This document shows, piece by piece, positions 4,713 through 30,301 of a stretch of DNA of 64,000 bases (positions are counted from its first letter, which is position 1; each line of letters starts with the position of its first letter). A program made the translations under genes and the position numbers. Source of the stretch: an uncultured bacterium (GTDB taxonomy: Bacteria; Verrucomicrobiota; Kiritimatiellia; PWTM01); the NCBI GenBank assembly GCA_963744655.1, contig CAVUUJ010000002.1, positions 1,277,864 through 1,341,863 of the forward strand. Direction: 5' to 3'. The notes beneath the pieces are model-generated. The model saw nothing but the letters and a program-made list of their open reading frames with translations. It was not told the origin of the DNA and made no database searches.

Positions 4713-4742
4713 CCTGCATTTTGACGTCCTGCATTTTGACGT
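4713..4742. repeat. 15-nt tandem direct repeat CCTGCATTTTGACGT x2, followed by CTAACGTC
   Basis: Read directly in the 55-nt gap between two minus-strand genes. The 3' part (GACGTCTAACGTC, 4738-4750) recurs at 19924-19936 and 21028-21040. Confidence 0.8.
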
Positions 4743-4751
4743 CTAACGTCT

Positions 4752-11413: not shown

Positions 11414-12904
11414 TCAGTAGGCGTGCAGGCGGAAGCGGACGGCGGTGACGGTGTCGCCGAACAGGGCGCCGGTGCCGTGGGCGGTCTCGTCGCCGTTGAG
11501 CCGGCGGGCAGCGCGCCAGGCGCCGTCCTCGAACCGGCCCTCGTCGAGCCAGAGCAGCTCGGCGGTCGCGCCCGGGCCGCCGGTCCGCTCGAACGTGAAG
11601 ACGATTCGCTGCCCCACGGCGGTGAAGGTGTCGTCGCCCTCGGCCAGCACCAGCGCGGCGCCGGGCACGGCGGTCTCCCCCGTCGGACCCCGGGTGCGGG
11701 CCCGGAGGCGCCAGCCGTCGAGCTCTGCGTCCCACGTCTCCTCGTCCGCCTGCTGCAGGAAGCCGGCGAGCCGCCCGGCGCCGCGCGCGGCGGCCAGCCG
11801 CGCGCCCATGGGGCGGAGCAGGCGGTAGACCGCTCCGAGCGGCGCGTCCGCGGGGAGGTCCTCGACGCCGAAGGGCGCGAAGCCGAGCGCCTCGTGGCGG
11901 CCGAGGGCGTAGAGGGCGCGCGCGCCGGCGCCGGCGTCGGCCCTGGACTCCGGGATCAGCAGCGGGTTGCCCAGCCGCGTGTAGGCGGCGCAGTAGCCGC
12001 GGAAGTCGGGGTCGTAGATGTCCGGGGCGACGAAGTCGATGCGCGGCGCCGCGGCCCGCCACACGGGCAGCATGCGCGCGGTCGGCCCGCCGCTGGGGTA
12101 GTCGCCGGCCTGGTAGCCCGGGCCGCGGTCGAGCCAGGCGTTGACGCCCATCGGCAGGTCCCACGCCGCCCGGCCCGCGGCCGCCACCGCGTCCACGTAG
12201 CGGGCGATGTGCCAGGCCATGAAGACCTCGGCGGCGTCCTCCCCGAAGACCGCCTCCCAGCCGCCGGCCCCGCGCAGGGGTCGCAGGGGTTCGGCGAAAC
12301 CGTCGTCCGCCTCCTCGAGCGCGCGGAGCAGCCCGGGCGGCACGTCGCCGCGGAAGGCGGCTTCCGCCGCGGGCGAGAAATCGCGCGGGGTGCCGAGGAT
12401 GCCGACCTCGTTTTCCACCTGCACGAACGGAATCGCCCCGGCCGCCCCCGGCCGGCCGCGCAGGTGCGCCATCACCGCGGCGAAGGCGCGGGCGTCGGAC
12501 TCCCGCGTGGCGGCCTCGAAGCAGGAGAGGGTCCACAGCGCCCTGCCCCCGCGGTCCCGCGCGCGGGGGAACCGCCCGCCGCCGGTCTTCACCCACGCGG
12601 GGGCGTAGCAGGAGATGGCGTTCTTGAAGGCGCCGAACCAGAGGGGGACGAAGCGGAGCCCGCGCTCGCGGCAGAGGTCCAGGGCCGTGTCCGCGGACGC
12701 GAAGTCGAAGGCGCCTTCCTCCGGCTCGAGGAGTTCCCAGTACAGCGGCACGAAGGCCGCGTCGCCGCCGAGCGCGGCGAGCCGGTCGAGCGCGGAAGCG
12801 AGGGTCCCGCGCGAGGCGGCGGCGGAGTTGTGCACCTCCCCGCCGAGCAGCGGCGGCAGCGCGGCCAGGGCCGGCGGCAGCGCGGGGGCGCGGGACGCGG
12901 TCAC
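11414..12904 (-). CDS. GH35-like beta-galactosidase-type hydrolase (GH35 N-domain plus DUF5597-type architecture)
   Basis: GTG start in a GTGA overlap at 12901-12904. Motifs LLGGEVHNSAAAS, FVPLYWELLEPEEGAFDF, LRFVPLWFGAFKNAISCYAPAWVKTGGGRFPRA and FVQVENEVG. The longer track ORF (to 14104) is a shadow extension. Confidence 0.75.
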   Translation of the reverse strand: MTASRAPALPPALAALPPLLGGEVHNSAAASRGTLASALDRLAALGGDAAFVPLYWELLEPEEGAFDFASADTALDLCRERGLRFVPLWFGAFKNAISCYAPAWVKTGGGRFPRARDRGGRALWTLSCFEAATRESDARAFAAVMAHLRGRPGAAGAIPFVQVENEVGILGTPRDFSPAAEAAFRGDVPPGLLRALEEADDGFAEPLRPLRGAGGWEAVFGEDAAEVFMAWHIARYVDAVAAAGRAAWDLPMGVNAWLDRGPGYQAGDYPSGGPTARMLPVWRAAAPRIDFVAPDIYDPDFRGYCAAYTRLGNPLLIPESRADAGAGARALYALGRHEALGFAPFGVEDLPADAPLGAVYRLLRPMGARLAAARGAGRLAGFLQQADEETWDAELDGWRLRARTRGPTGETAVPGAALVLAEGDDTFTAVGQRIVFTFERTGGPGATAELLWLDEGRFEDGAWRAARRLNGDETAHGTGALFGDTVTAVRFRLHAY

Positions 12905-14034
12905 GCCTTCACCCGGGCCAGGTCCGGCCCGCCGCGGCCGAGGCCGAGCACCTCGTGGCGGAGGCGCAGGTAGGCGAGGTAGTTGTCGAACGACACGTCC
13001 ATCGGGCAGCAGTGGTCGAGCGTCGGGAAGTACCCGCCGCGCTCCACGGCCGGGCGGACGCGTTCCAGCTCCGCCCGGATCGCGCCGGGGCCGCCGGTCA
13101 GCCGGTGCTTGTGGATGTTGCCCCACCACAGGGCGCGCTCGCCGTAGCGCGCCTGCAGCTCGTTGACGTCCACGCCGGCCTGCGCCTCCAGGGGCCAGAA
13201 CAGCTTCACGCCGCCGTCGAGCCACGCGTCGAGCAGCGGCCGGATGTCGCCGTCGGAGTCGACCGAGACCACGTCGTAACCGTAGCCGCGCGCGAGGTCG
13301 GCGACGCGGCGGTAGCGCGGCACGACCAGCTCCCGGAAATGCGCGGGATTCATGATCGGCCCGTTCTTGAAGCAGATGTCCTCCCAGAAATGCACACCCT
13401 CGGCGGGCGCGCCGCGTTCGCCGAAGATGCGCACCTGCCGCTCGGCGGCCCGGGCGTGGGTCTCGATCATGTCCTCGAGCCACGCCGGGTCGTCGTAGGC
13501 CATCATGGCGAAGACGTTGAACCCGAGCAGGTCGCGCGGCCGGCCCGCGAGGCTGCCCGCGTCGATCCAGACCGGATGCCCCGCGGCGCGGGCGCGCCCG
13601 GCGACCGCCGCCGCCACCGGGTCGTCCGGGCCGGGCAGCGGCGCATCGACGTCCATCCACGCCTTGTAGCGCTCCCACTCGTCGCGGTCGCGGACGGCGG
13701 GCCGGACCTCGTGCGGGATGGTCTTGTGCGAACCCTTGTTGTCCTGGATGACCGACCCGTCCGCGCGCCGCGTGGTCACGGTGGTTTCCGTCTCCTCGAG
13801 CACGTCCGTCTCGAACAGCGGCGTCCGGGGCGGCGCGTACGAGAGGCGCAGGGGGTAGCGGTCGAGCCCGAACGCCTCGCACCACGCGTCGTAATCGCGG
13901 GGATCGAGGTCGGGACTCAGCCCCTCGCCCTGCCACCGCTCGTAGGCGGCGAGCAGCGGCCCGTGGTCGATGTTCGGCGGCGGCACGCCGGGCTCCCGGC
14001 GGACAAAACGACGGTACTGCTCGCGCGGATTCAC
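12901..14034 (-). CDS. URO-D-superfamily protein (uroporphyrinogen decarboxylase-like TIM barrel), DSDGD subtype
   Basis: 377-aa ORF with balanced composition. Motifs FKNGPIMNPAHFRELVVPRYRRVADL, VVSVDSDGDIRPLLDAWLDGGVKLFWPLE and FPTLDHCCPMDV. Alignable with the 25195..26268 product. Confidence 0.75.
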   Translation of the reverse strand: MNPREQYRRFVRREPGVPPPNIDHGPLLAAYERWQGEGLSPDLDPRDYDAWCEAFGLDRYPLRLSYAPPRTPLFETDVLEETETTVTTRRADGSVIQDNKGSHKTIPHEVRPAVRDRDEWERYKAWMDVDAPLPGPDDPVAAAVAGRARAAGHPVWIDAGSLAGRPRDLLGFNVFAMMAYDDPAWLEDMIETHARAAERQVRIFGERGAPAEGVHFWEDICFKNGPIMNPAHFRELVVPRYRRVADLARGYGYDVVSVDSDGDIRPLLDAWLDGGVKLFWPLEAQAGVDVNELQARYGERALWWGNIHKHRLTGGPGAIRAELERVRPAVERGGYFPTLDHCCPMDVSFDNYLAYLRLRHEVLGLGRGGPDLARVKA

Positions 14035-14454: not shown

Positions 14455-15235
14455 CTAGCCGCGGCGGCGGCGCAGGACCAGGGCCGCCCCGCCGAGGAGC
14501 AGCAGGCCCACCGAGGCCGGCTCGGGGATGAGGTCTACTCCATCGTCCAGACCGGCCGGTCTGGTTGTTGGACCACTCGATGCCATACTGCGTATGGCAA
14601 ACTGGTGGTCACGGTTGCCATCGCGTCCGCCCGGCGGATGGCGATGCCGAAGTTCTCGACGGGTTCTGGATCATGCGTCGAAGTCGGCCGCGCGCCCCGC
14701 GGCGGTGTCCCGAGATCGAAGGTGAAGGTGTCGGCGGTAGCGGCACCGCCATCCGCGACGCCATCCGAACTCGGCCGCGAAAACGGACTCGTCGCCGAAA
14801 TGCACCATGGAGGGAGGCGTATCGCCCACGGCGAGGGTGGCATCCCAATCGCGACGTGACGCGGAAGAAGGAGATATCGGCAGATCGCCCGTCGTGGGAT
14901 TGAGCCGAATTCCAGAATCTCATCGTGAGCGTCCAAGCCGAAGCCGCCTTCTGGTCCGTAGCGTCTTGGCCGTCAGGTCCACCTTCTCGTAGAATCCAGT
15001 AGGTCCAGGGTCGTTGGGAAACTGCCCGTCCAGGTAGCCAGATTCTGGCATAGCTGGCCGCCGACCTCCTGCATGAATAGTCTGGTCCTCGATACCGTGT
15101 CGACCTGATCTGACGTCCACCCACAGGCGCCGCGTCGGCGCCGATGCCCGAGTCATAGGTCACCAGCGCGGCCATGGCCCCCGTGCCAACCAGCAGGGCG
15201 GCGGCGGCAACGGCCATCCACTTGCACTTTCTCAT
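14455..15235 (-). pseudogene. decayed PEP-CTERM protein gene (multiple frameshifts)
   Basis: The signal peptide MRKCKWMAVAAAALLVGTGAMA (ATG 15235) and the sorting signal DLIPEPASVGLLLLGGAALVLRRRRG* (stop 14455-14457) are in different frames. The span is 781 nt, which is not a multiple of 3. Protein-like segments switch frame several times between them. GC is locally lower. Confidence 0.65.
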
Positions 15236-16517: not shown

Positions 16518-18094
16518 GCGGCGCGCGCGGAAAGGCGAAGGAGCCGGGCGCGGCGCGCGGGGGCGCGAACCTGCTGGTCGTCTGCACGGACCAGCAGCAC
16601 CCGCTGCTCTCCGGCTTCCGCGGCCACCCGTTCGTGGAGACGCCCCACCTCGACCGGCTGGCCGCGCAGGGCGCGCAGTTCACGCGCGCGTACTGTACCA
16701 ACCCCATCTGCACCCCCAGCCGCATGAGCCTGCTGACCGGGCGCTACACGCACGAGATCGGCGTGCCGAACAACGGCTTCCCGCTCGATCCCGCGCTCCC
16801 CACCTGGCCCCGTCTGCTGGACCGCGCGGGCATCGAGAGCACGATGCTCGGCAAGATGGACCTGTGCGGCGACTACCAGGACGGGGGGTTCACGCACCAC
16901 CGGATCATCCGGCGCCGGGCCGCGCACCCGGCGATGACCGCGGAGCCGCCCTACCGCATGACGGCGCCGCTCCGCGAACGGATGCCCGCGGCCAGCCGCT
17001 CGTGGCGCCCCGTGTCGCGCGCCCTGCGCCACGCGGGGCCGCGCACCCACCGCATCCTCTGCCGCGAGAAGTTCGAGGCGAACGAGATCGACGGCGAGAA
17101 CGACGATTTCCTGGGCAACTACGACCACGACGTCATCGTCACCGACTGGGCCGTGGACGCCCTGAAGGAGAAGGGCGCGGCGCATCGCGCGGGCGGGGCG
17201 GCGCCCTGGGCGCTCTACGTCGGCCTGATCCTGCCGCACGAGCCGTTCACCATCCCCGCCGCGTACTACGACCGCTACTACCCCGACCGCGTCGCCCGGC
17301 CGGTCGACGCCCGCTTCCCCAACCCGGACCTGCACCCCGCCCTGCGGTTCCTGCAGCGGGCCCACGGCACGGGCACGCCGACGGAGGACGACCTGCGCCG
17401 CGCGCTGGCCGCGTACTACGGCATGGTGACCTGCGCCGACGAGCTGCTCGGCCGGATCCTCGGCGAGCTCGAGCGGCAGGGCCTGGCGGAGGACACGCTG
17501 GTGGTCTTCACCTCCGACCACGGCGAGTCGCTCGGCGAGCACGGGCTCTTCTTCAAGAAGTGCAGCTACGAGGGCTCCGCCGGCGTCCCGCTCGTCCTGC
17601 GCGGCCCCGGCGTGCCCGCCGGGGCGCGGGTCGACGCGCCGGTGAGCCTGGTCGACCTGCCGCCCACCCTGCTCCGCGCCGCCGGGTTGACGCCGGGGCC
17701 GGGCCTGCCCGGCATGGACCTGCGGGCCGTCGCCGCCGGCGCGCCGCCGCCGCGCGATTTCGCCTTCGCCGAGTACCATGGCTACTTCATGCGGCACGAC
17801 TGGTTCATGACCGTGCACGACGGCATGAAGTACACGTGGTACAGCGACGGCGAGCGGCCCACGCTGTTCGACCTCGAGCGCGACCCGCACGAGCTGCGCG
17901 ACGTGGCCGCCGACCCCGCCTACACGGACCGGCTACGCGCCTGCCGAGAGCGGCTGCTGGCCGTGTGCGATCCCGGGGCCGAAAGCCGCCGGGCCCGGGA
18001 CCTGCTCGGGCTGATCGGCCCGGACGGCGAGGACTACCTGTGCGGGGAGGCGACGGCGCGCGGGTCAACGCCTGACGGGAGGAAGACGCCATGA
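16514..18094 (+). CDS. Cys-type sulfatase with no obvious signal peptide
   Basis: GTG start in a GTGA overlap at 16514-16517. Motifs NLLVVCTDQQH, NPICTPSRMSLLTGR (CxPxR), VVFTSDHGESLGEHG and FDLERDPHELRD. Confidence 0.8.
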   Translation: MSGARGKAKEPGAARGGANLLVVCTDQQHPLLSGFRGHPFVETPHLDRLAAQGAQFTRAYCTNPICTPSRMSLLTGRYTHEIGVPNNGFPLDPALPTWPRLLDRAGIESTMLGKMDLCGDYQDGGFTHHRIIRRRAAHPAMTAEPPYRMTAPLRERMPAASRSWRPVSRALRHAGPRTHRILCREKFEANEIDGENDDFLGNYDHDVIVTDWAVDALKEKGAAHRAGGAAPWALYVGLILPHEPFTIPAAYYDRYYPDRVARPVDARFPNPDLHPALRFLQRAHGTGTPTEDDLRRALAAYYGMVTCADELLGRILGELERQGLAEDTLVVFTSDHGESLGEHGLFFKKCSYEGSAGVPLVLRGPGVPAGARVDAPVSLVDLPPTLLRAAGLTPGPGLPGMDLRAVAAGAPPPRDFAFAEYHGYFMRHDWFMTVHDGMKYTWYSDGERPTLFDLERDPHELRDVAADPAYTDRLRACRERLLAVCDPGAESRRARDLLGLIGPDGEDYLCGEATARGSTPDGRKTP

Positions 18095-19692
18095 CGGACG
18101 GAAGCCGCAGCACGCCACACGAAGCCGGAGAGGCCGCCGGGGGGCCGGACATCGTCCTGGTCCTCTTCGACCAGCTCTCCGCCAAGTGGCTCGAGGCGGC
18201 GCAGGCCGGGGCCTGCCCCGTGCCGCACCTCGACCGGCTCGCGGCCGAGGGCGTCTCTTTCCGCCGCGCGATCACGAGCAACCCCGTCTGCTGCCCCGCG
18301 CGCGCCACGCTCGCCACGGGCCGCACCTCGCGCCAGCACGGCGTGCTCCAGAACGGCTACGCGCTCGACCCCGCAATCCCCACCTTCATGCGCCTGCTCC
18401 AGCAGGCCGGCCGCCGCACCGGCTGCTTCGGCAAGCTGCACCTGCATCCGCACTTCGCCGGGCTGCGCCCGGACTACTCCGTGTACGGGTTCGACGTCAC
18501 GCGCCTCACCGAGGACCCGCGCGGCGGCGCGTGGCTGGACGGGGTGGAAGCGGAGTACCCGGAGCACTACGAGGCGGCGCTGGCCACGATCTGGGCGGGC
18601 TCCATCCCCGAGTTCGCCGCCTACGGCCCGGACCGTCGCGACCTGCGGCCCCGCATCCGCGCGGCGCGCGAGGGGCGGGACTGGACCTCGCCCGAGGTGC
18701 CGGACGGCGACGCGCGCCACGCCGTGCTGCCCTTCCCCGACGAGGTGAGCCAGACGGAGTGGATCACGCGCGGCGCGGAGGCGTTCATCGCGGAGACGCC
18801 GCCGGACCGGGCGCTCTTCGCCCACGTCGGCTACGTCCAGCCGCACAGTCCCTTCCAGGCCCCGGCCGCGTACTTCCGGGACCTGGACGACGCGCGCATC
18901 CCCGACGCCCTCCCCGCGACCTGGCGGGACGACCCGCACCACCCCCGCTGCTGGGACGGAGGCGGCGCGGCGGAGGACCTGCCGCCGGAGCGGGTCCGCT
19001 CCATGCGCCGCTGCTATTTCGCCGACCTCGCCCACCTCGACGCCCAGGTCGGCCGGATTCGCGCCGCGCTGGAAGCCGCCGGGCGGTGGGAGCGCACGCT
19101 GCTCGTCGTCGCGGCCGACCACGGGGAACTGCTCTACGACCACGCCCACCACGGCAAGGGCAACCCGCACTACGACGCCTGCGTGCGCGTGCCGCTGCTC
19201 GTCGCCGGGCCCGGCCTGCGCGGCGGACTCGTCCGCGACGAGTTCGTGCAGCTCGAGGACCTGTTCCCCACGTTCCTCGACGCCGCCGGCCTCGAGGCGC
19301 CCGCGCCCCCCGCCGCCGGCCCCTACCTGCGCGGCGTCCAACCGGCCCGCCTGCCGGGCCGCTCCCTGCTGCCGCTCTGCCGCGGCGAGGCCGCGCCGGC
19401 GGACGGGCGGGACCACGCCTACGCGGAGAGCTACAGCGATATCTTCTCCTGCACGCCCGACGCCTGGGCCCGCACCGTGCGGACCGACCGCTGGCGCTAC
19501 ACCCGGTTCCCCGGCGGCGCCGGGGAGCAGCTCTTCGACCTCGAACGCGACCCCGACGAGCTCGTCAACCGCGTCGCCGACCCCGCCTGCCGGGACGCGC
19601 TGACCGAACTGCGCGAACGGCTGCTCGATGCCGTCATCCTCCAGGACCACCCCCACCCGCCCCGCGGCCTCTTCTCGCACGGCGTGCACTGA
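18091..19692 (+). CDS. Cys-type sulfatase with no obvious signal peptide
   Basis: 533-aa ORF with an ATGA overlap at 18091-18094. Motifs IVLVLFDQLSAKW, NPVCCPARATLATGR, LLVVAADHGELL and FDLERDPDELVN. Confidence 0.8.
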   Translation: MTDGSRSTPHEAGEAAGGPDIVLVLFDQLSAKWLEAAQAGACPVPHLDRLAAEGVSFRRAITSNPVCCPARATLATGRTSRQHGVLQNGYALDPAIPTFMRLLQQAGRRTGCFGKLHLHPHFAGLRPDYSVYGFDVTRLTEDPRGGAWLDGVEAEYPEHYEAALATIWAGSIPEFAAYGPDRRDLRPRIRAAREGRDWTSPEVPDGDARHAVLPFPDEVSQTEWITRGAEAFIAETPPDRALFAHVGYVQPHSPFQAPAAYFRDLDDARIPDALPATWRDDPHHPRCWDGGGAAEDLPPERVRSMRRCYFADLAHLDAQVGRIRAALEAAGRWERTLLVVAADHGELLYDHAHHGKGNPHYDACVRVPLLVAGPGLRGGLVRDEFVQLEDLFPTFLDAAGLEAPAPPAAGPYLRGVQPARLPGRSLLPLCRGEAAPADGRDHAYAESYSDIFSCTPDAWARTVRTDRWRYTRFPGGAGEQLFDLERDPDELVNRVADPACRDALTELRERLLDAVILQDHPHPPRGLFSHGVH

Positions 19693-19915
19693 GCGCCCCT
19701 GCAGGTGTTCAATATTGCCGTCGCGACGGCCGCCCAAACGAAGGTTATCGCCCCCTCGCGCAACATGAGCTGTCAACCAGTTCTCCTCAGGTAGGAGTCC
19801 CGGCATCCCCCTCAAGAGCGTCTCGGAATAGGCCGTGCTTCTGCCGGAGCACTCGGCATCTCTTCATGCTCCTCTGTGCTTTCGGACATTCACCGCCTTC
19901 CACTGCAGTAATGCT

Positions 19916-19946
19916 TCTCCTTCGACGTCTAACGTCGTCGGAATCC
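19916..19946 (+). repeat. 31-bp perfect direct repeat, left copy (TCTCCTTCGACGTCTAACGTCGTCGGAATCC)
   Basis: An identical 31-mer recurs at 21020-21050. The pair brackets the PEP-CTERM cassette. Confidence 0.9.
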
Positions 19947-20024
19947 GAACGGGCCGGAGGCGCCGGCTGGAGCCGAAGGCCGGCGTAGTCATAAAAGACT
20001 AACACAAATTGGAAAAAAGCACTT

Positions 20025-20053
20025 TACAGTTGGGGGGGGGGGGGGGTAGAAAG
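20025..20053 (+). promoter_or_regulatory. candidate sigma70-like promoter TTTACA-N17-TAGAAA whose spacer contains an uninterrupted G14 run (20034-20047)
   Basis: An A-rich tract lies upstream (AAAAGACTAACACAAATTGGAAAAAAGCAC). The same -35/17-nt G-rich spacer/TA-hexamer layout is seen at 26675-26703 and 29027-29055. Confidence 0.45.
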
Positions 20054-20134
20054 GACATCGTAATCGGCGGAGAGGTCCTGTTCAGCATGGGGTCGGCACA
20101 GGCGATGGAAGCCGCCGGATGAGGAGAACAAGAG

Positions 20135-20902
20135 ATGAAGAAGCGAGCAATCAGTGGCCTGATCTGCGTCGGCCTGTTGCTGGTCGCATTGTCGGCCGTG
20201 AGCGTTCATGCGGCGGTCATAACGGGGTTCACGACAGCAGAAGGCTATGACTTCGGAACAACCTACTGGAAGCATCCGAAGACGTTGACCAGCTACACGA
20301 CGGCCAACGGGACCGTCGATGGGACGAACTTCCACGCGGCCGACACGGCGACCGCCCATGCTAACTACTACTACGGCGAGCAGAGCACCGATCCGGGCAG
20401 CTCCGCGGGGCTGCTCGAGAACCTGGACGTCATGACCGGGTACGTCAACATAGCGGGGCAGACGAACTACGACTTCATGTTCAACGCGCCCTACCGCTTC
20501 AGCAGCGCGACGGGCAACCCCGGTAACGATGACGACTTCTTCGTGTTCGAGATATCGCCTAGCGATAGTCCCGACAACGTGACGCTGCAGGCTCTGGACT
20601 CCAGTTCCTCGCCCCTCGGCTCCGCGGTGTTCCTCAACCAGACGGCCATCCCCGGTGACGTGATCCGCTTCCGCGCCCCGAATCCCGCCCAGACTGACAT
20701 GAGCGGGTGGGGGTTCGATTACGACGATTTCGGAGTGGCGGATGCGACCCAGATCGCCGGCCTGCGCATCTACGATAGCCGCTCCGGCGGCGGCTTCGAT
20801 CCGGGCGTCGTAGGCATCAACAATGCCATCCCCGAGCCGGGGACGCTCGGCCTGCTCGGCGTGGCGGTGGCGGCCATGCTGCTCCGCCGGCGCCGTGCGT
20901 AA
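20135..20902 (+). CDS. PEP-CTERM sorting-domain protein
   Basis: 255-aa ORF. Signal peptide MKKRAISGLICVGLLLVALSAVSVHA. C-terminus IPEPGTLGLLGVAVAAMLLRRRRA*. RGGAG-like RBS. Confidence 0.85.
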   Translation: MKKRAISGLICVGLLLVALSAVSVHAAVITGFTTAEGYDFGTTYWKHPKTLTSYTTANGTVDGTNFHAADTATAHANYYYGEQSTDPGSSAGLLENLDVMTGYVNIAGQTNYDFMFNAPYRFSSATGNPGNDDDFFVFEISPSDSPDNVTLQALDSSSSPLGSAVFLNQTAIPGDVIRFRAPNPAQTDMSGWGFDYDDFGVADATQIAGLRIYDSRSGGGFDPGVVGINNAIPEPGTLGLLGVAVAAMLLRRRRA

Positions 20903-20927
20903 CAGACGGCGACAGCGCTCCATTCGG

Positions 20928-20965
20928 GCGGGCCCTCCCGGCGGGAGGGCCCGCTCTTCTTCTTC
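20928..20965 (+). terminator. Rho-independent terminator candidate
   Basis: Stem GCGGGCCCTCCC / GGGAGGGCCCGC with a 3-nt loop, followed by TCTTCTTCTTC. It lies 26 nt after the TAA. Confidence 0.6.
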
Positions 20966-21019
20966 GCCCCCGTCACAGGGGGGGGTGGTGCGTGATTGAG
21001 CGCCCCCGCCGGGCGGGCC

Positions 21020-21050
21020 TCTCCTTCGACGTCTAACGTCGTCGGAATCC
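21020..21050 (+). repeat. 31-bp perfect direct repeat, right copy
   Basis: Identical to 19916-19946. It is followed (21051-21150) by a ~100-nt repeat that also occurs at 4751-4870. Confidence 0.9.
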
Positions 21051-21628
21051 TCCTCATCCATGCGTTACGCGGACAATGGGGGCTGAAATGGCCCTTGGAG
21101 CGTTTCTGAGGGCGGGTTCCGGCGTCTCCAAGGCGGTTTGACCGAGAAGGCGCCCGGGGCGGCCGGGCTCGACAGGCTGCTCTCCTTCACCTGCCCACGT
21201 ACGGAAGAGGCGGGCAGGGCGTTCGGCGCCATTCCGGCAGCGGGGTGCCGCCGTGGCCGGGAAGGTCAGGTCTCTCGGATTCCGCCCTTCGCAGGAGCGT
21301 CGCGTTCCGGGCCGCGGCGGCCCGGGTCCGGTGAGCCCGTCGGACCCGGGCACCGGGTGCGGCCGGTCCCCTTCGCCCGCCGTATCGTGCCCCCCGTTCC
21401 GCGCGGCGCCGGCCGCTGCCGGCCGCGGACCCGCAACACCGGGGCCGGCGGCTTTCGGCCCGGGGGCGGTCGGTGGTTGACGTGACCCGCGGGCCGGTGT
21501 TCTGCTTCGCCCGCACGGAGACGGAGACGCGGGGGAGGGCGGGCCTCCCCGGCGAGGCGTGGATCCGGGCCCGGGTGACCCGGCAGGCGCCTCACCTCGC
21601 GCCGATGTGCACAACAGGAGATCGTCCC

Positions 21629-24600
21629 ATGGCTCTTCGCACCGCGCTTTCCGCCCTGCTCTCCCTGCTCCTCGCCGGCCCCCTGTTCGCGGCCCGGGAA
21701 GGCGAGTACTTCAGGGAAGACCGCAACCTGGGGCAGGTGGACAGGGGGGTCGACCGGATCGAAGGCCTCCTGTTCTGGCTCAAGAGCGATGCGGGCGTGG
21801 AAGTGGACGAGCAGGGCCATGTCGTCGCCTGGACGGACGCGTCCGGCCGCGGGCATGTCTTCGAGGCCCTCCCCGGGGCCGCCCACCCCGCCAGGCTGAC
21901 CCCGGGGGTCGTCCGTGGCCGGCCCGCGCTGACCTTCACGGCCGCCCAGCACAAGCCGGGCGGGCTGGTCAACCGGGAGATCGGTATCGACCCGGCCAAG
22001 GGGCTCTCGCTGGTCCTGCTTGCGCGCGTCGCGGGCATGGATCGCCACGCGTTCCTCGTCGTCTACGGCGACCAGTACAGGACCAAGGGCTCCCTCGGCA
22101 TCGGCTCGACGGGTTACGAGACGTACGGCAAGAGCTGGTGGCGGGTCGTGGCGGACTCGGAGGAGCTCTTCAAGTCCACGGACGACAACATCGCCGGCAA
22201 GGGCTTCGTGCTCTTCGTGGCCGCCTACGATCCGGGCACGAAGACCCTGACCGCCTACCAGGACGGTGTGCAGGTCGGACAACGGGAGTGCGACCTTGCC
22301 CTGGCGCCCGGGCACCCCTTCGGCATCGGCGCGGAACCCCGCGGTCAATGGTCCTTCGGCGGCGAGGTGCTCGAAGCGCTTGCCTACAACCATGCCATGG
22401 ATCGGGACGAGGTGCGGGCTCTCACCCGGGCCATCCTGTCCCGGCATGGTCTCGGGGGCGCGCCCGTGAGTTCCATGGCCCCGCTCCTGCCCTTCGCCTA
22501 CTACCCCTCCAGGAACCAGATGGAGGTGGCCGTGGAGCTGAGCCCGGACCTGCTGCGGAAGGCGGGCACCACGCCCGGGGAGGTCCGGGTTCGCGTGCGC
22601 GACGCCGGGACCCGGGCGGTCGTCGCCACGGGCACGGTGCCGCTCGACGCCCAGGCCCGGGGCCAGGCGCTGTTCGACGTGCCGGACTTACCCGACGGCG
22701 AGTACGCCGTGGAGTACGTCATCGGAAGGCACGTCGAGATCTCGCCCAAGACCTTCCGGCGCATACATTTCCCCTTCGAGACCTCGTCCCTCGGCGAGGA
22801 ACACGAGGTCTACCCCCCGTTCACACCCGTCGAGGTCGAGGGCGCGTCCGTGTCCGTGGTGGGCCGCACCTACACCCTGAACGCCTTCGGTCTCTTCGAC
22901 CAGGTCACCAGCCTCGGCCGCCCCCTCCTGGCCGGCCCCATCGCCCTTCACGGCCGGACCGGGGCCGGCCCGATCCGGTGGCAGCCGGGCGCGCTGGAGG
23001 GCAAGCGCGTCCACGACGACGAGGCGCTCTTCCACGCGGCCTGCGCGGGCTCGGGGGTGCGGGTCCGAACCCGGACCGTGATCCAGGAGGACGGGTGCGC
23101 CCGCATCGACATGATCCTCAAGCCCGGCGCGGACCGGGCCGAGATCGAGCGGCTCGTGCTGGAGATTCCCTTCCGGGACCGCGAGGCCCCCCTGTTTCAC
23201 TACGTCGCGGACAACGGCATGCGCTTCAACTACGCGGGCCGCACCCCGCGGGGCGGCACGATCGAGTGGTACAGCGAGCCGTGGGACGGCTGGGTGCCCA
23301 TCCGGTGGCGCGTCAGGCAGCCCGGCCCGGACGACGGCGTGATCTGGACCGGCGCGCATCCGCGCCAGCACGGCAACACCCAGCGCTGGGATCACCGGCC
23401 GTTCGCGCCCTATATCTGGCTCGGCGCGGAGCAGCGGGGGCTGGCCTTCTTCATGGAGAGCGAACGGGGCTTCGAGACCGACTACCGCACGCCGGTGCAA
23501 CAGCTGATCCGCCGGGGCGACGAGGTGATCCTGCGCGTGGAGATCTTCCAGCGGCCCGTGACCCTCACGCGTCCCCGCCGTCTGACCTTCGGCCTCATGG
23601 CCAGTCCGGGCAAACCGATGGAGGAGCGGTTCCGCACCCGGACCCTGGCCTCGGGCATAGGACCCGTGTCCTGCTGGGGGGGCTGGCAGTGTTCGAGCAA
23701 GTACCCGGACCACCGCGACTGGACCCTCGTGGACCGGATCCAGGAGATCCGCAGGCGGGGCGAGTACACGGAAGCGGACCAGCAGTGGTTCGAAGCCAAG
23801 GCCGAGGACGTCCGGGCGCGCTGGCCCGAGCGCAAGATCAACGGCAGTTCCGACTGGCTCTGGCTCACCACCCTCTTCGCCCGCCGCGCGGCGGAAAAGG
23901 GGGCCGGGCATTCCGGCACTTACTTCGAGGAGCACGCCACCGATCCGCTCCTGCCCGAATGGCAGGTCTTCCAGGACGAGTGGGCCAGTTCCGAGTTCAA
24001 CCGCTTCCGCGAGCGCAGCGCCAACTGGGGCGTCTTCTCGCCGAGTTACCACGATTTCGCGCTCTACATGGCCAACGAGTGGATGCGGCGCGGGGTGAGC
24101 CTCTACTTCGACAACACGAACCCCAAGCGGTGCTACAACGAACGCTTCGGCCCCGCGTTCCGCGGCCCCGACGGCGCCCTGCGCTACGGCATCAGCCTCT
24201 TCGGCCAGCGCCGCTACTACCGGCGCGTGTACAAGCTGCTGAGCAAGTGGAACGAGAAGGGCGCCCCGTACCCGGTCGACTTCACCCTGCACATCACCAA
24301 TACGCAGACGCTTCCGTTCAACACGTGGGCGACCGCCACCCTGGACCTCGAGCAGCGAGCGCACACGCTCAACCCGGAGTTCTTCCCGCCGGAGACCGAG
24401 ATGACCGTGGCCGAACTCACGGCGGGCAGGGGCCGGATCGTCACCGAGCGCGCCCGGGAGCGCCACGCGGCCCGGGAGGAGAAGGCCCGTCGCGCCGGGT
24501 ACCAGCTGCCCTGGCCGCCGGACTACACGCGCACCGTCACCTTCGGCCGCCAGGTCGGAGCCATCCCCCTGGCGCTCGACTTCGTCAGCGGCCACAGCCG

Positions 24601-25141
24601 GCACCATGGCCCCGACTACACGCCGGCGATGGTGCTGCGCAACTGGGCCATGCGCCGCCTTCACGACATCCGCGCGGGGGCCCTGTACTACAAGAGCGCC
24701 GCCCGGGCCCGGGACTACGAGGCCCTCCTGCTCGGCTTCGGGTACGGCGACGCCGACCGGGTGGCGGAGAGCAACTACTGGGAGCCGGACCCCGCCGTCC
24801 GGGTTGGCGACCCCCGCATCAAGTGGATGGCCCTGACCCGGCGCGACCCCGGCGCGGACCCCTTCGGCCTCCTGCTGCTGCAGAGCTACACCCGTGCCGA
24901 CGCGGTGACCGCGCAGGTGACCCTCCCGGGGGCCGCGGCCCTGGTGGACGTGGAAACCCGCGAGCGCATCGCGGTGGCCGGGGACCGGGCCGCCGTGACC
25001 ATGCCCGCCAATTTCTCGACGCGCATGTTCCTCGCGGTCCGGGATCCCGAACGGGCGGCGAGCCTGGCCCGGTCCCAAGGCATACGGGTGGAGGACCTGG
25101 CGCCGCCCCCTGTCCCGGGGTCGGCCGACGGATCGCCCTGA
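21629..25141 (+). CDS. giant-paralog family member B (N-terminal LamG/concanavalin-like module)
   Basis: Start MALRTALSALLSLLLAGPLFA (ATG 21629, CAGGAG RBS 8 nt upstream). LamG-like block: FWLKSDAGVEVDEQGHVVAWTD...FVLFVAAYDPGTKTLTAYQDGVQVG...FGGEVLEALAYNHAMDRDEV. Family motifs FPFETSSLG..VYPPFTPV, LTFGLMASPGKP and SLYFDNTNP. Confidence 0.8.
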   Translation: MALRTALSALLSLLLAGPLFAAREGEYFREDRNLGQVDRGVDRIEGLLFWLKSDAGVEVDEQGHVVAWTDASGRGHVFEALPGAAHPARLTPGVVRGRPALTFTAAQHKPGGLVNREIGIDPAKGLSLVLLARVAGMDRHAFLVVYGDQYRTKGSLGIGSTGYETYGKSWWRVVADSEELFKSTDDNIAGKGFVLFVAAYDPGTKTLTAYQDGVQVGQRECDLALAPGHPFGIGAEPRGQWSFGGEVLEALAYNHAMDRDEVRALTRAILSRHGLGGAPVSSMAPLLPFAYYPSRNQMEVAVELSPDLLRKAGTTPGEVRVRVRDAGTRAVVATGTVPLDAQARGQALFDVPDLPDGEYAVEYVIGRHVEISPKTFRRIHFPFETSSLGEEHEVYPPFTPVEVEGASVSVVGRTYTLNAFGLFDQVTSLGRPLLAGPIALHGRTGAGPIRWQPGALEGKRVHDDEALFHAACAGSGVRVRTRTVIQEDGCARIDMILKPGADRAEIERLVLEIPFRDREAPLFHYVADNGMRFNYAGRTPRGGTIEWYSEPWDGWVPIRWRVRQPGPDDGVIWTGAHPRQHGNTQRWDHRPFAPYIWLGAEQRGLAFFMESERGFETDYRTPVQQLIRRGDEVILRVEIFQRPVTLTRPRRLTFGLMASPGKPMEERFRTRTLASGIGPVSCWGGWQCSSKYPDHRDWTLVDRIQEIRRRGEYTEADQQWFEAKAEDVRARWPERKINGSSDWLWLTTLFARRAAEKGAGHSGTYFEEHATDPLLPEWQVFQDEWASSEFNRFRERSANWGVFSPSYHDFALYMANEWMRRGVSLYFDNTNPKRCYNERFGPAFRGPDGALRYGISLFGQRRYYRRVYKLLSKWNEKGAPYPVDFTLHITNTQTLPFNTWATATLDLEQRAHTLNPEFFPPETEMTVAELTAGRGRIVTERARERHAAREEKARRAGYQLPWPPDYTRTVTFGRQVGAIPLALDFVSGHSRHHGPDYTPAMVLRNWAMRRLHDIRAGALYYKSAARARDYEALLLGFGYGDADRVAESNYWEPDPAVRVGDPRIKWMALTRRDPGADPFGLLLLQSYTRADAVTAQVTLPGAAALVDVETRERIAVAGDRAAVTMPANFSTRMFLAVRDPERAASLARSQGIRVEDLAPPPVPGSADGSP

Positions 25142-25194
25142 ACGCGCCGGGGCCGACCGGCGCGTCCCCCTGGCGCCGGAGAAAGGATGTGTGC

Positions 25195-26268
25195 ATGAAC
25201 GTCGCCGAACGCTACCTGGCTTTCATGAGGTACGAGACGGTGGACCGGCCGCCGCTCGTCCTGCCCGGCGGGATCTTTCCGGTGACCCGGCGGCGCTGGG
25301 AGCGGGAAGGGCTGCCCGCGGGGGTCGACCTCAACGAGTTCTTCGGCGGCGAGCCCATGCCCGTCCGGCCGCTGGCCCTCGACACCCTGCTCCGCCCGCC
25401 CTTCGAGGAAGAGATCCTGGAGGAAACCGGCGAGTTCGTCGTGAAGATCGACCAGCACGGCGTGAAGTGCCGGAACTTCAAGGACGAGACCTCGATGTCC
25501 GAGCATCTCGAGTATCCGGTCAAGGGACCGGAGGACCTGGCCTGGCTGCGCCGGCGTCTCGACCCCGCCGCGCCCGGCCGCATCGCGCCCGACTGGCTTG
25601 AACGGGCGCGGGAGAGCCGGGCGCGCGGGGTGCTGACACAGATCAACGGCGGCATGTACTTCGCCTTCCTCAACGAGCACATGGGCACGGAGGCGGCCCT
25701 CGTGGCCTACTTCGACACCCCCGAACTCGTTCACGAGGTCAACGAGCTGCAGTGCCGCCTCTGCGAGCAGGCCATGAACACGGCGCTGCCCCGCTTCAAG
25801 CCCGACCGCATCGGCTACCACGAGGACATGGCCTACAAGAACGGCAGCATGATCTCGCCGGCCATGTTCCGCGAGTTCATGACGCCCTACTACAAGCGGG
25901 TGACGTCGATCACCTCGCGGCATGGCCTCGACCATCACCTGATGGACAGCGACGGCGATATCCGCGAGCTCATCCCGCTCTGGCTCGAGTGCGGGATCAA
26001 CGCCTTCGCCCCGCTCGAAGTGGCCGCCGGCATGGACGTCGTGGCGCTGCGCGAGGAATACGGCCCGGCGATCAGGATGGAGGGCGGGTTCGACAAGCGC
26101 ATCCTCGCCTCGGACAAGCCCTCCATCCGGCGCGAGTTCGAGCGGCTGGCGCCGGTAATCGACGGCGGCGGCTACCTGCTCAGTTGCGACCACACCGTGC
26201 CGCACAACGTGCCGCTGGAGAACTACGCCTACCTCGTGGAACTGATGAAGGTCCATTTCGGCATGTGA
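25195..26268 (+). CDS. URO-D-superfamily protein, DSDGD subtype
   Basis: ATG 25195 with a GGAGAAAGGA RBS. Motifs YKNGSMISPAMFREFMTPYYKRVTSI, HHLMDSDGDIRELIPLWLECGINAFAPLE and LLSCDHTVPHNV. Confidence 0.8.
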   Translation: MNVAERYLAFMRYETVDRPPLVLPGGIFPVTRRRWEREGLPAGVDLNEFFGGEPMPVRPLALDTLLRPPFEEEILEETGEFVVKIDQHGVKCRNFKDETSMSEHLEYPVKGPEDLAWLRRRLDPAAPGRIAPDWLERARESRARGVLTQINGGMYFAFLNEHMGTEAALVAYFDTPELVHEVNELQCRLCEQAMNTALPRFKPDRIGYHEDMAYKNGSMISPAMFREFMTPYYKRVTSITSRHGLDHHLMDSDGDIRELIPLWLECGINAFAPLEVAAGMDVVALREEYGPAIRMEGGFDKRILASDKPSIRREFERLAPVIDGGGYLLSCDHTVPHNVPLENYAYLVELMKVHFGM

Positions 26269-26674
26269 CCACGCGAAGGCGGCCACGGCCACCGGCCGCC
26301 TGCCGGCCCGGGGCGAAGCGCGAGCCCGGCGCCCGGGGCCTCACCCCGCCATCCCCCGCGGCGGACAGGGGGGGCGTGACGGGTCAGGCCGTGGCACGTG
26401 ATCACGCCTCGCTCGCGGCTCCGGGGCGGCGCGAATCGTGGCGGCGCGGCGCGTGCCCGCCGGTTCGGTGCCGGGAGCGTCGCGCTGTCCGCCCGGCCCC
26501 CGGCGCCGCGCTCCGCAACTCAAGGCCCCGGCTCGGGAGCCCCCCCACCACCGGAGGCGGGCGGACATCGAAAGCCGCTACGCCGGCTTGCCCCCGAACG
26601 CCGCCAGGGCCGAACAGGCCGCGAACAACGGGCTAGTCCATTGGGACTAGGGGCAAGAAAATGCAGAAAGGGGC

Positions 26675-26703
26675 TTGACCTGGATGGGGGCGGGGGGTAA
26701 GAA
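26675..26703 (+). promoter_or_regulatory. candidate promoter TTGACC-N17-TAAGAA (G-rich spacer TGGATGGGGGCGGGGGG)
   Basis: Same architecture and downstream leader (CATCGTAATCGGTGGAGAGGTTCTGTTCGGCATG) as the 20.0-kb cassette. Confidence 0.4.
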
Positions 26704-26766
26704 GGGCATCGTAATCGGTGGAGAGGTTCTGTTCGGCATGCTGCCGGAACAAGAAGGAAGGGGAGA

Positions 26767-27657
26767 ATGATGAAGGTGACTATGTTTCGTCGAGTGACGG
26801 TTGCGGCGTCGATCGCCCTGTTCTGCGGTCTCATGTGGCCCGCGACGGCGGAGGCCACGACCGTCGGCTGGTGGCGCTTCGAGGACGGTGCGTTCCAGGA
26901 GGATTCCGGTCCTAACAACTTTGATCTGACCGTGCCCGCGGGTGACAACAACCCGGTCCAGGTCACTCCCTTGCCGGGCAGCGGCGACGGCAGCGCGTTC
27001 CAGAATCCGATTGCCAAGACCGGCGACTCCAATACCGGCCTTGCCCAATTCACGCCCAGCAGTTCTCGACCCCGGCTGCGTTCAGCGCCGGTTCCTCGTC
27101 GCTCTTCGCACTCGGCGCCGACTACACCTTCGAATTCATGTTCAACCGGGATACCGACGCCTACGGGTTCCTGTTCGCCCAGTGGACGGACGGCGGCGGA
27201 AGTGCCGGTAACACATTCGGCTTAGCCGTCGGCCAGGATGGCTCGGACTACATACGTGTGGCTCGGGGCAGTTCGTCCGCGAACCTCACGGCCGCGGGCG
27301 CGTTTACCACCGGCACGGACTACTATGTCGCCCTGGTCCGGGACGGCACCGCGAATACGGACCTGCTCTACCGCCAGGACCTGACCAACGGTGGGGCCCT
27401 GCAGGTGTTCGATGTCACCGCTGCCACGGCCGGCCAAAACAAGGTCATCGGTGACACGGGTCTCGGATGTGATCATCGGCGCGCTGCGGACGGGGTCTAC
27501 CTCCACCGACCTTCCGTTCAACGGGTTGATCGACGAGCTGCGCATCTCGGACACGGCCCTCGCGCAGAGCGAGCTCCTGGTCGTCCCCGAACCGGCGACG
27601 CTCGGCCTGCTGGGCCTGGCGGGTGTGGCCATGATCCTGCGCCGCCGCCGCGGCTGA
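26767..27657 (+). pseudogene. PEP-CTERM/LamG-like protein gene, copy 1; two compensating frameshifts
   Basis: The N-terminus (MMKVTMFRRVTVAASIALFCGLMWPATAEA...) and the C-terminus (..VVPEPATLGLLGLAGVAMILRRRRG*) are in the same frame. The homologous middle part (27138 ORF: MFNRDTDAYGFLFAQWTDG...) is in another frame. Relative to copy 2 there is a 1-nt deletion at 27061-27070 and a 1-nt insertion at 27449-27460. Confidence 0.7.
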
Positions 27658-27680
27658 CGAACGGCGACAGCGCTGCATTC

Positions 27681-27720
27681 GCGCGGGCCCTCCCGATCGG
27701 GAGGGCCCGCGCTCTTTCTC
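27681..27720 (+). terminator. Rho-independent terminator candidate
   Basis: 14-bp perfect stem GCGCGGGCCCTCCC-GATC-GGGAGGGCCCGCGC followed by TCTTTCTC. Confidence 0.65.
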
Positions 27721-27952
27721 GTCCGGGTGCGGGGGATTGCCCGGCGCGGCCCCGCCCCTCTGCGCCAAGAGGACGAACCGCGAAGAGACGCGAACGGGAC
27801 GGGGGGCCTGGGGAACGGGACATCGAAGGCCTGCGTCGCGTCGTCGCGGTGCAGGCGCGCGGCGGCCGGCCTGCCGCGGACGCATGTCCCGATCGCGGAG
27901 CCGCGTAATCAGCACAACACACTTCCTGACAGCACGGCATGGCTTGGGCAAG

Positions 27953-29002
27953 ATGGCGCACATGGAGCACGTGCGGGTCACGGACGACGAGCGGGGCGTT
28001 CTGCGCGGGCTGGCCGCGCGCGTGGCGGAGCTTGCCGCTGACCCCGCGCAGGAAGCGAAGCGCGAGGCGGTGCGCGCGCTGAACCGGCTCGACCCCGTTC
28101 CGCCGCGCATCTACTGCTTCCCGGAGGCGGCCTGGCTGGAGGCGATCCCGCCGGCCTCGCTCGCCTGTGCCGGCCCGCTGCTCCGCGGCTGGGAAACGCG
28201 GCTTCGCATGGCGATCTACACCGCCGAGGTGCTGCGCGACGACCAGCCGGTGGACGCGGTCTTCAACCTGCCGTGGCACGGGGGCACGACGGGCTGGGGG
28301 CTGGAGGCGGACGTGCGCGCGACGGGCCGGGGCGAGGCGTCGGTCTACTACCTCCACCCCTATTCCGGCTACCGCCTCGCCCGCCCCTCCGACGGCGGCG
28401 CGGTGCACTACGACCCGCCGCTGCGCGAGCACGCGGACCTCGACAAGCTCGGCGCCCCGGAGGTCCGGGTCGACCGCGAGGCGTCGGCGCGGCAGCTCGA
28501 CCTGGCGCGCGAGCTTTTCGACGGCCTGCTCGAGGTCCGCCGCCGCGGCGGCTGGTGGCCGCTGCTCGGCGGCCTCTCCCAGGCCGCCGTGACGCTGCGC
28601 GGCGCGGACGCGCTGATGCTGGACCTCTACGACGACCCGGCGTGGGTGCGCGCCTACCTCGGCCGCCTCGCCGAGGGCCACCACGCCCTGCTCGACCGGC
28701 TCGAGGCCGAGGGTTTCCTCACGCTCAACAACGGGTGCGAGTGGATCCACACGGGCGGGATCGGCACCTCGGACGAGCTGCCCGCGGCGGGGTTCGACCC
28801 CGCGCGGCCGCGCTGCGCGGACCTCTGGGGCGGCGTGGAGAGCCAGGACCTCGTGGGCATCTCCCCCGCGCTCTTCGAGGCCCTCCCCGGGGCCGCCCAC
28901 CACCGGAGGCGGGCGGACATCGAAAGCCGCTACGCCGGCTTGCCCCCGAACGCCGCCAGGGCCGAACAGGCCGCGAACAACGGGCTAGTCCATTGGGACT
29001 AG
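27953..29002 (+). pseudogene. truncated, chimeric duplicate of the 30302..31636 URO-D-like gene
   Basis: Identical to the full copy through ..VGISPALFE (duplication junction at 28880). It then reads into repeat-derived sequence ALPGAAHHRRRADIESRYAGLPPNAARAEQAANNGLVHWD*. Confidence 0.75.
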
Positions 29003-29026
29003 GGGCAAGAAAAAGCAGAAAGGGGC

Positions 29027-29055
29027 TTGACCTGGATGGGGGCGGGGGGTAAGAA
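29027..29055 (+). promoter_or_regulatory. candidate promoter TTGACC-N17-TAAGAA (duplicate of 26675-26703)
   Basis: Identical hexamers and spacer. The same conserved leader follows. Confidence 0.4.
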
Positions 29056-29118
29056 GGGCATCGTAATCGGTGGAGAGGTTCTGTTCGGCATGCTGCCGGA
29101 ACAAGAAGGAAGGGGAGA

Positions 29119-30006: not shown

Positions 30007-30029
30007 CGAACGGCGACAGCGCTGCATTC

Positions 30030-30069
30030 GCGCGGGCCCTCCCGATCGGGAGGGCCCGCGCTCTTTCTC
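30030..30069 (+). terminator. Rho-independent terminator candidate (duplicate of 27681-27720)
   Basis: Same perfect 14-bp stem and TCTTTCTC tail. Confidence 0.65.
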
Positions 30070-30301
30070 GTCCGGGTGCGGGGGATTGCCCGGCGCGGCC
30101 CCGCCCCTCTGCGCCAAGAGGACGAACCGCGAAGAGACGCGAACGGGACGGGGGGCCTGGGGAACGGGACATCGAAGGCCTGCGTCGCGTCGTCGCGGTG
30201 CAGGCGCGCGGCGGCCGGCCTGCCGCGGACGCATGTCCCGATCGCGGAGCCGCGTAATCAGCACAACACACTTCCTGACAGCACGGCATGGCTTGGGCAA
30301 G

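Follow-up and report, generated by a model that had tools for sequence, protein, structure and literature searches.

Homopolymeric tracts in promoter spacers are textbook contingency loci, and to our knowledge nearly every documented example is from a host-adapted pathogen (Neisseria, Haemophilus, Bordetella, or Mycoplasma). Long G/C tracts slip, and one-base changes in the spacing between the −35 and −10 elements alter promoter strength. The classical cases are porA (poly-G) and opc (poly-C) of Neisseria meningitidis, in which a homopolymer in the −35/−10 spacer gives graded (rheostat) expression; such promoter-spacer tracts were reportedly described by Sarkari in 1994. In Bordetella, a 'C-stretch' separates the site of the activator BvgA from the −10 element, and the vlp genes of Mycoplasma hyorhinis encode lipoproteins whose conserved signal peptide lies within a shared 5′ block. 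The PEP-CTERM/exosortase protein-sorting system is said to go back to Haft et al. in 2006, and in proteobacteria the regulation of PEP-CTERM genes involves the sigma-54 system PrsK/PrsR. The C-stretch is shared by paralogous fimbrial promoters of Bordetella and ranges from C7 to C19, its length setting transcription: fimX has C7, fim2 10–15 and fim3 13–18 residues, one extra C in fimX lowers the transcript 3.8-fold, and some tracts vary within single cultures (PMC1891110). In M. hyorhinis, all vlp genes have in common a promoter region that includes a poly-A tract, and indels in this tract switch transcription ON or OFF (PMC10502178). Here we describe a run of 15 G residues (G15) inside a promoter-like element upstream of an intact PEP-CTERM gene, found in a 64-kb stretch of contig CAVUUJ010000002.1 from an uncultured bacterium (hereafter the window, to which all coordinates refer; G+C content, 72.7%).

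The element is housed in a 440-nt intergenic gap between a sulfatase gene (18091–19692; Pfam Sulfatase), which ends 330 nt before it, and a 255-codon gene (20135–20902), and all of its parts are given here for the plus strand. A palindrome, TAGTC-N6-GACTA (19986–20001), lies at its 5′ side and recurs in the alignments at 26634–26649 and 28986–29001. It is followed by an A/T-rich stretch with an A-tract at the position of an UP element (20002–20022), a −35-like hexamer TTTACA (20023–20028; 5/6 match to TTGACA), an 18-nt spacer made of GTT and G15 (20029–20046), and a −10-like hexamer TAGAAA (20047–20052), in which T-12 and A-11 are present. The uninterrupted tract itself covers 20032–20046, as counted by script. 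The first-pass annotation had read G14 at 20034–20047 within a 17-nt spacer, with hexamers spanning 20025–20053, and these values are replaced by the ones above. Downstream of the hexamers is a conserved 34-nt leader, CATCGTAATCGGYGGAGAGGTYCTGTTCRGCATG (20056–20089), containing a Shine–Dalgarno (SD)-like GGAGAGG with an ATG 11 nt later; this ATG would start a putative upstream open reading frame (uORF) of 11 codons (MGSAQAMEAAG*, 20087–20122) that stops 12 nt before the main ATG. The gene encodes an intact PEP-CTERM protein of 255 aa, composed of a signal peptide, an orphan mature domain, and a sorting tail. It is followed by an intrinsic terminator (20906–20965) consisting of the 3′ tail ACGGCGACAGCGCTCCATTCG (20906–20926), a 14-bp GC hairpin (20926–20956), and a TTCTTCTTC run.

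This locus shares features with each of the described systems. As in Neisseria porA and opc, a homopolymer fills the −35/−10 spacer, here a putative one, of a gene for a predicted surface protein, whereas the Neisseria tracts are shorter (about 9–14) and belong to a host-restricted pathogen with many contingency loci, without paralogous modules or a conserved leader. The likeness to fim2, fim3, and fimX of Bordetella pertussis and Bordetella bronchiseptica concerns the high-GC host and the paralogous, here putative, surface-gene promoters with one layout including a G/C homopolymer, the tract differing between paralogues. Unlike the fim arrangement, the tract lies here between the −35-like and −10-like hexamers, there is no known activator, and the products are PEP-CTERM proteins instead of fimbrial subunits, made by an environmental, planctomycete-like bacterium. 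With the vlp genes, the locus has in common separate transcripts, as predicted from its terminators, a conserved promoter-like region with a homopolymer, and differing mature surface domains. The vlp tract, however, is poly-A in an AT-rich genome, whereas only one of the two paralogues has an uninterrupted tract here and the signal peptides are not shared. Our literature search found no paper in which PEP-CTERM genes are tied, at a specific locus, to homopolymeric tracts or to phase variation, nor one dealing with promoter motifs of planctomycetes. The G15 switch proposed below is a candidate for promoter-tract phase variation of an already known kind, and both the organism and the class of gene are unusual for it.

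The G15 tract is a clear outlier in the window. Runs of G or C comprised 12 of length 7, two of length 8, none of 9–14, and one of 15, with counts dropping about 4-fold per extra base. The expected number of runs of 15 was 0.015 under independent, identically distributed (iid) bases and 2e-4 when the window's own decay was extrapolated, and none of 200 order-3 Markov simulations reached a run of this length. In addition, G/C runs of at least 8 were depleted, with 3 observed versus about 26 expected (iid). Because long runs are depleted and G15 stands so far outside their distribution, the tract looks like a slippage-expanded repeat; it is a homopolymer longer than composition predicts, one of several properties expected of promoter-tract phase variation. 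No second phase-variable-looking tract was detected by the run count in the window. The two 8-nt runs are C8 (47231–47238) and G8 (20978–20985), the latter being the second-longest G run in the window and belonging to the same cassette, 22 nt past the terminator stem (20956).

The length of the tract was also examined in an independent assembly; the earlier annotation had named an assembly artefact as a possible objection. A k-mer-based Logan contig (L001; 1,042 bp, short-read run ERR11523668) encodes the exact 20135 protein and is an exact substring of the window (19917–20958, 100% identical), G15 included, which indicates that the length does not stem from an error of a single assembler. The run may share its sample with the genome of the window, and the agreement concerns the dominant length and carries no information on minor length variants.

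The promoter-like element is part of a module that also occurs elsewhere in the window, in line with the claim that several PEP-CTERM cassettes share a promoter-like element, a leader, and a terminator. The sequence TTGACC-N17-TAAGAA followed by the 34-nt leader was found at 26675–26740, upstream of a frameshifted LamG/PEP-CTERM pseudogene (26767–27657), and at 29027–29092, upstream of an intact LamG/PEP-CTERM gene (29119–30006) with a terminator at 30030–30061, all on the plus strand. Here the hexamer coordinates given previously (26675–26703 and 29027–29055) were right, and the paralogous spacers are indeed interrupted (TGGATGGGGGCGGGGGG, 17 nt), their G5CG6 tracts covering 26686–26697 and 29038–29049. 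The leader occurs three times and no more (20056, 26707, and 29059, all plus strand; 0/100 shuffles match), nhmmer E-values for the three module copies were about 1e-28 to 1e-30, and nothing further appeared below E = 20 in the window, where neither nhmmer --max nor a pattern search with 3 mismatches yielded another leader copy. These values place the sharing beyond chance. The same three sites also have in common a 3′ tail, ACGGCGACAGCGCTSCATTCG, with a 14-bp GC hairpin and then a T/C run behind it (20906–20965, 27661–27722, and 30010–30071), as the annotation had stated. The stems lie at 20926–20956, 27681–27712, and 30030–30061, the runs behind them contain both T and C, and the 20-kb tail and terminator are 88% identical to the copies at 27661 and 30010. 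Folding gave z = −3.4 and −3.6 for the hairpins, and GC-rich stems with T/C-rich runs just past the stop codons mark these sites as intrinsic terminators.

The sharing among three cassettes is real, but only two of them are independent. A tandem duplication of about 2.34 kb (26541–28880 and 28893–31229; 97.6% identical over 2342 nt) contains the LamG/PEP-CTERM cassette and the first ~1.1 kb of a downstream 516-codon gene, so that the 26-kb and 29-kb copies depend on each other and the module rests on two independent sequences. In the first unit, the LamG/PEP-CTERM gene at 26767 is broken by two frameshifts, and a truncated copy of the 516-codon gene (27737–29002) runs into the upstream region of the second unit.

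Comparison of the 20-kb copy with the 29-kb copy revealed an uneven conservation profile. Identity was 57% before the palindrome, 62% in the palindrome, 44% from the palindrome to the −35 hexamer, 4/6 in the −35 hexamer, 72% in the spacer, 4/6 in the −10 hexamer, 89% (33/37) from the −10 hexamer to GCATG, and 42% from GCATG to the start codon. Within the genes, it was 55% in the signal-peptide codons and 79% in the PEP-CTERM codons, followed by 87% from the stop codon to the hairpin and 79% in the hairpin and tail. The sharpest conservation is thus found in the first ~32 nt past the −10-like hexamer and in the 3′ untranslated region (UTR). Such a profile is unlike that of a uniform recent duplication and suggests that these two segments either are under constraint or are bordered by recombination breakpoints. 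The distance from the palindrome to the −35 hexamer varies between the copies (29.5 vs 33.5 nt, read from the sequence). In the 26-kb and 29-kb copies, the palindrome is extended to CTAGTCC-ATT-GGGACTAG and supplies stop codons for reading frames upstream.

The two intact genes with this module encode different proteins. The 20135 and 29119 products share just a 23-residue PEP-CTERM tail, and their signal peptides are unrelated, which agrees with the earlier description of unrelated mature domains. Both tails have the PEP motif, the hydrophobic span, and the basic cluster of PEP-CTERM substrates and score above the curated cut-offs (PF07589, 25.8 and 25.0 bits, cut-off 20.7; TIGR02595, 24.3 and 28.0 bits, cut-off 16), matching the known sorting system in its C-terminal PEP motif, hydrophobic helix, and Arg cluster. 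We infer from this family membership (signal peptide plus PEP-CTERM tail) that the 20135 product is located at the cell surface. Its only match among 5.8 billion proteins was itself, no PDB sequence matched, and structure prediction without an alignment gave a predicted local distance difference test score (pLDDT) of 37.6. The G+C content at third codon positions (GC3) of its gene is 0.83, compared with 0.91–0.96 in the neighbours. Relatives of the LamG protein were at most 38% identical. No exosortase of the EpsH/XrtA family was found among the scanned window proteins, and no counterpart of PrsK/PrsR sigma-54 regulation is visible in the window.

Several observations suggest that the hexamers form a promoter. 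In a scan with a weight matrix built from sigma-70 base frequencies of E. coli against the window composition, TTTACA-N18-TAGAAA ranked 3rd and TTGACC-N17-TAAGAA 10th among 639,720 hexamer pairs on both strands, although the promoter rules of the host lineage may differ from those of E. coli. Each pair was by far the top candidate of its own intergenic region, and when the two paralogues are aligned, their hexamers fall into matching columns. Additionally, an AT-rich island (19979–20037), very unusual against 72.7% G+C, lies directly 5′ of the hexamers in the 20-kb copy. The 20135 gene is intact and bounded by terminators and therefore needs its own promoter; the same holds for each module gene, since both end in strong hairpin terminators. 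Taken together, TTTACA/TAGAAA-type hexamers are probably the promoter. If so, transcription would start near 20057–20061, and the 34-nt leader would open a 5′ UTR of about 75 nt (about 57–60 nt in the paralogues).

Our preferred interpretation, to which we give a probability of roughly 45%, is that the cassettes possess a shared, lineage-specific expression module whose spacer tract has become hypermutable in one copy and acts as a phase or rheostat switch. In the 20-kb copy this module, at 19986–20134, would comprise an A/T-rich upstream stretch, a sigma-70-type promoter (TTTACA-18 nt-TAGAAA), a 5′ UTR of about 75 nt, and an SD site and would express a small, monocistronic gene whose product is an exosortase-sorted (PEP-CTERM) surface protein; the same module with a matching 3′ UTR/terminator would drive the unrelated LamG/PEP-CTERM gene 9 kb away. 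Because this common 5′ and 3′ frame surrounds unrelated genes, it behaves like a lineage-specific cassette frame that takes up recombined mature domains. An ancestral G-rich spacer, preserved as G5CG6 in the paralogue, may have become the uninterrupted G15 of the 20-kb copy, which would gain or lose single G residues often through slipped-strand mispairing. Since the tract lies between the hexamers, each slip would move them relative to each other in spacing as well as in rotational register. A single step separates the G15 allele from the canonical 17-nt spacing of the paralogue; G14 would restore that spacing and is predicted to be strongest, the present G15 (18 nt) is predicted to be weaker, and alleles of G16 or more and G12 or fewer are predicted to be near-off. 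A clonal population would then express the 20135 gene heterogeneously, and the interrupted G5CG6 could be a stable counterpart, by analogy with the short fimX tracts in Bordetella.

Some findings weigh against this switch. A strict sigma-70 consensus scan called no promoter anywhere in 19000–31000, because it demands T at the last position of the −10 hexamer (−7), which both TAGAAA and TAAGAA lack. Conservation peaks 3′ of the −10 hexamer while the hexamers themselves agree at just four of six positions, so the key control element may lie elsewhere. The homology of the module is supported by only two independent copies, and the only second assembly has an equal tract length, its contig being unbranched across the tract. 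Decay is evident nearby, where two PEP-CTERM pseudogenes accompany a LamG remnant and a truncated duplicate, and the tract could be a neutral accident. Of the phase- or rheostat-variation proposal in the first-pass annotation, the outlier tract exactly between the best hexamers of the intergenic region and the intact PEP-CTERM gene downstream hold, whereas the promoter itself escapes strict calling.

If this switch exists, it would extend stochastic surface switching to another ecology, where it might help cells evade phages or grazers or hedge their bets when attaching to polysaccharide particles, and it would offer the first clue to the regulation of individual exosortase substrates there. 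A bolder version, which we consider doubtful, is that a free-living polysaccharide degrader displays interchangeable exosortase-sorted proteins from cassettes bounded by direct repeats and switched stochastically by promoter-spacer slippage. In this version, a slippage-prone G-tract promoter and an invariant 34-nt leader carrying a coupling uORF would precede each gene, which would end in a PEP-CTERM tail and be followed by a constant 3′ UTR/terminator. If true, this contingency-locus system would lie outside host-associated pathogens and be the first known for PEP-CTERM proteins. The common 5′ and 3′ frames enclosing unrelated mature domains also suggest a way for PEP-CTERM repertoires to diversify, namely by cassette exchange.

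The setting of the 20-kb cassette bears on whether the tract is a selected switch. A 34-nt direct repeat, C[T]TCTCCTTCGACGTCTAACGTCGTCGGAATCC (19913–19946, plus strand; palindrome CGACGT-CTA-ACGTCG inside), recurs at 21017–21050 with 97% identity (blastn) and one mismatch, and an exact 25-mer within it occurs twice where 0 is expected. The copies are separated by about 1.07 kb and flank the 20-kb promoter, gene, and terminator; the Logan contig begins 4 nt inside the left copy (19917). This arrangement suggests that the cassette was inserted or recombined at a repeated element, and the repeats, the LamG remnant, the tandem duplication, and the pseudogenes are signs of a recombinationally active region. 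Such activity fits an exchange of mature domains between fixed flanks and equally fits a tract that arose as a by-product in a decaying, moved cassette. In the latter case, the promoter might be correctly placed while G15 would be no selected switch but a neutral or mildly deleterious expansion, by slippage, of a spacer that was G-rich to begin with, in a recently inserted and poorly integrated orphan cassette. The flanking repeats, the ORFan nature and atypical GC3 of the gene, the pseudogenes and remnants nearby, and the solitary position of the tract in the window all speak for this incidental origin. However, long homopolymers are strongly depleted here, which makes G15 beside an intact gene unusual, and a G15 in the spacer would make expression heterogeneous regardless of its selective history. 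We regard an incidental tract as unlikely.

The right copy of the direct repeat opens an element of about 130 nt (21017–21150, plus strand). A related sequence at 4735–4860 (plus strand) is 72% identical, and both open with the palindrome GACGTCTAACGTC and include a conserved AATGGGGNCTGAAANGGCCCTT. The consensus fold of the two sequences reached −26 kcal/mol, and in 5 of its pairs both bases differ between the copies; no Rfam family matched, and a pattern for the element gave 0 matches in genome contigs. At 4.7 kb, the element sits between two minus-strand genes, with its start overlapped by a promoter-like TTGACG-N17-TAACGT pair. Candidate identities for the element are a small RNA gene, a regulatory site, and a miniature repeat element.

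The conserved leader raises the question of how it acts, and the reading of it that we favour, though with little confidence, is translational. The SD-like GGAGAGG and the following ATG would start a uORF whose peptide is irrelevant and whose termination, on the main start codon or shortly ahead of it, couples or tunes translation of the PEP-CTERM gene. Leader conservation stops exactly at the ATG 11 nt after GGAGAGG, and both copies have a short open frame there: the 11-codon frame of the 20-kb copy stops 12 nt short of the main ATG, and the 10-codon frame of the paralogue (26738–26770) has a TGA overlapping the main ATG as ATGA. The two uORFs are unrelated in sequence. Against this stand the number of independent copies, just two, the long SD–ATG spacing of 11 nt, the commonness of short open frames in GC-rich DNA, and the strong SD sequences of the main genes themselves. 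Coupling through a uORF is compatible with a switch at the promoter.

Two coding readings of the module were also considered and rejected. A plus-strand poly-Gly open reading frame (ORF) over the module does not serve as the main explanation, as its start would fall upstream of the best promoter, nor does a minus-strand poly-Pro ORF of 29–30 aa, which begins at the CAT in GCATG, extends as far as the palindrome's TAG, and has no SD. Third codon positions account for 3/6 substitutions, a share without statistical significance.

The conserved 34-nt block could itself be the main control element, as a repressor operator over the start site, part of an alternative-sigma promoter, or a divergent minus-strand promoter, and in that case the G tract would sit upstream of, or outside, the true core promoter. 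If upstream of the core, the tract could still act by altering how far a more distal site lies from it, as happens in Bordetella fim. Such control is favoured by the block itself, better conserved at 89% identity than the hexamers (4/6 each), whose −10-like members are non-canonical; in addition, the minus strand reads CTGAAC-N17-TACGAT with a score of 10.2 (about 16th in the window). On the other hand, the plus-strand pair outscores this minus-strand pair, there is no conserved minus-strand gene 5′ of either copy, and the block shows no evident dyad symmetry. The alternative sigma motifs tried in the block (sigma-54 GG-N10-GC, sigma-28, extracytoplasmic function (ECF)-type AAC-N16/17-CGT, and SigR GGAAT-N18-GTT) had unfit spacings as judged by eye. 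On these grounds, control by the block in place of the hexamers appears unlikely.

The leader had alternatively been proposed to be a cis-regulatory RNA, that is, a structured, riboswitch-like or protein-binding element specific to PEP-CTERM genes. The high conservation of the first ~32 transcribed nt between otherwise unrelated genes favours such a role, but at the level of structure it is largely refuted. The leader folds no better than shuffled sequences (z = +0.40 and −1.30), and the consensus fold of the two independent sequences reached −4.55 kcal/mol with 0 compensatory pairs, so that the covariation proposed as a check was not seen in this pair. A search of Rfam 15 gave 0 matches at the gathering threshold over the whole window, and hits at E ≤ 5 within 19700–21500 were noise, none of them over the leader.

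The distribution of the leader points the same way. Our searches covered the window as the part of the source genome included, 185,579 species-representative genomes, and the JGI metagenomes. Two leader patterns gave 0 matches in the representative genomes, and a strict pattern gave 0 in the metagenome contigs. A codon-degenerate pattern gave 3 matches in these contigs, all of them chance hits within unrelated coding DNA. The contigs of the nearest LamG/PEP-CTERM homologues (≤38% identity) have no similar flanks upstream or downstream. Within the window, a PEP-CTERM gene on the minus strand (44523–45257) has its own terminator and lacks the promoter/leader module. The same is true of a fourth PEP-CTERM lineage (14455–15235, minus strand), likely a pseudogene, whose start (signal peptide) and PEP-CTERM end lie in different frames with several frameshifts between; it has its own terminator and a promoter-like TTGATT-N17-TGATAT at 15348 (minus strand). 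The module is thus absent from two of the four independent PEP-CTERM genes in the window and, with no copies in public collections, is not a general feature of PEP-CTERM genes, even here. A structured RNA specific to PEP-CTERM genes is accordingly very improbable.

Least credible of all is a sequencing or assembly artefact in the tract length: long G homopolymers are error-prone on every platform and both assemblies may derive from one sample, but the k-mer-based contig from ERR11523668 matches the window exactly across G15.

The window as a whole is a polysaccharide-degradation region, with several sulfatases, GH116, GH123-like, GH42, and MGH1-like hydrolases, a SASA esterase, and regulators of GntR/LacI and AraC types. 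It also encodes a DUF1559/prepilin/H-X9-DG-type protein, a combination typical of Planctomycetota. The best database matches of the neighbouring sulfatase and of a glycoside hydrolase are only about 55% identical, which indicates an effectively unsampled lineage; the single named match for these enzymes is a Phycisphaeraceae metagenome-assembled genome at 42%.

Directly after the sulfatase stop codon (19690–19692) and in frame with it is an 18-residue LamG-type remnant (19696–19749), in which PLQVFNIAVATAAQTKVI aligns with PLQVFDVTAATASQDKVI, 12/18 residues being identical to residues 210–227 of the 29119 product. Coding-like GC3 reaches to about 19800, and the remnant is either a decayed paralogue or a former fusion. 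Downstream of the tandem duplication, the GH116 domains start at residue ~353 of the ORF 30622–34290, which overlaps the 516-codon ORF (30086–31636) in another frame; the true GH116 start probably lies near 31650, or a frameshift is present. Finally, domains with a uroporphyrinogen decarboxylase (URO-D)-like fold occur three times in the window, at 4752–7604 (minus strand), 12901–14034 (minus strand), and in the C-terminal part of 21559–26268 (plus strand), and one of them is fused to a sulfatase, which is an unusual association in a glycan-degradation locus.

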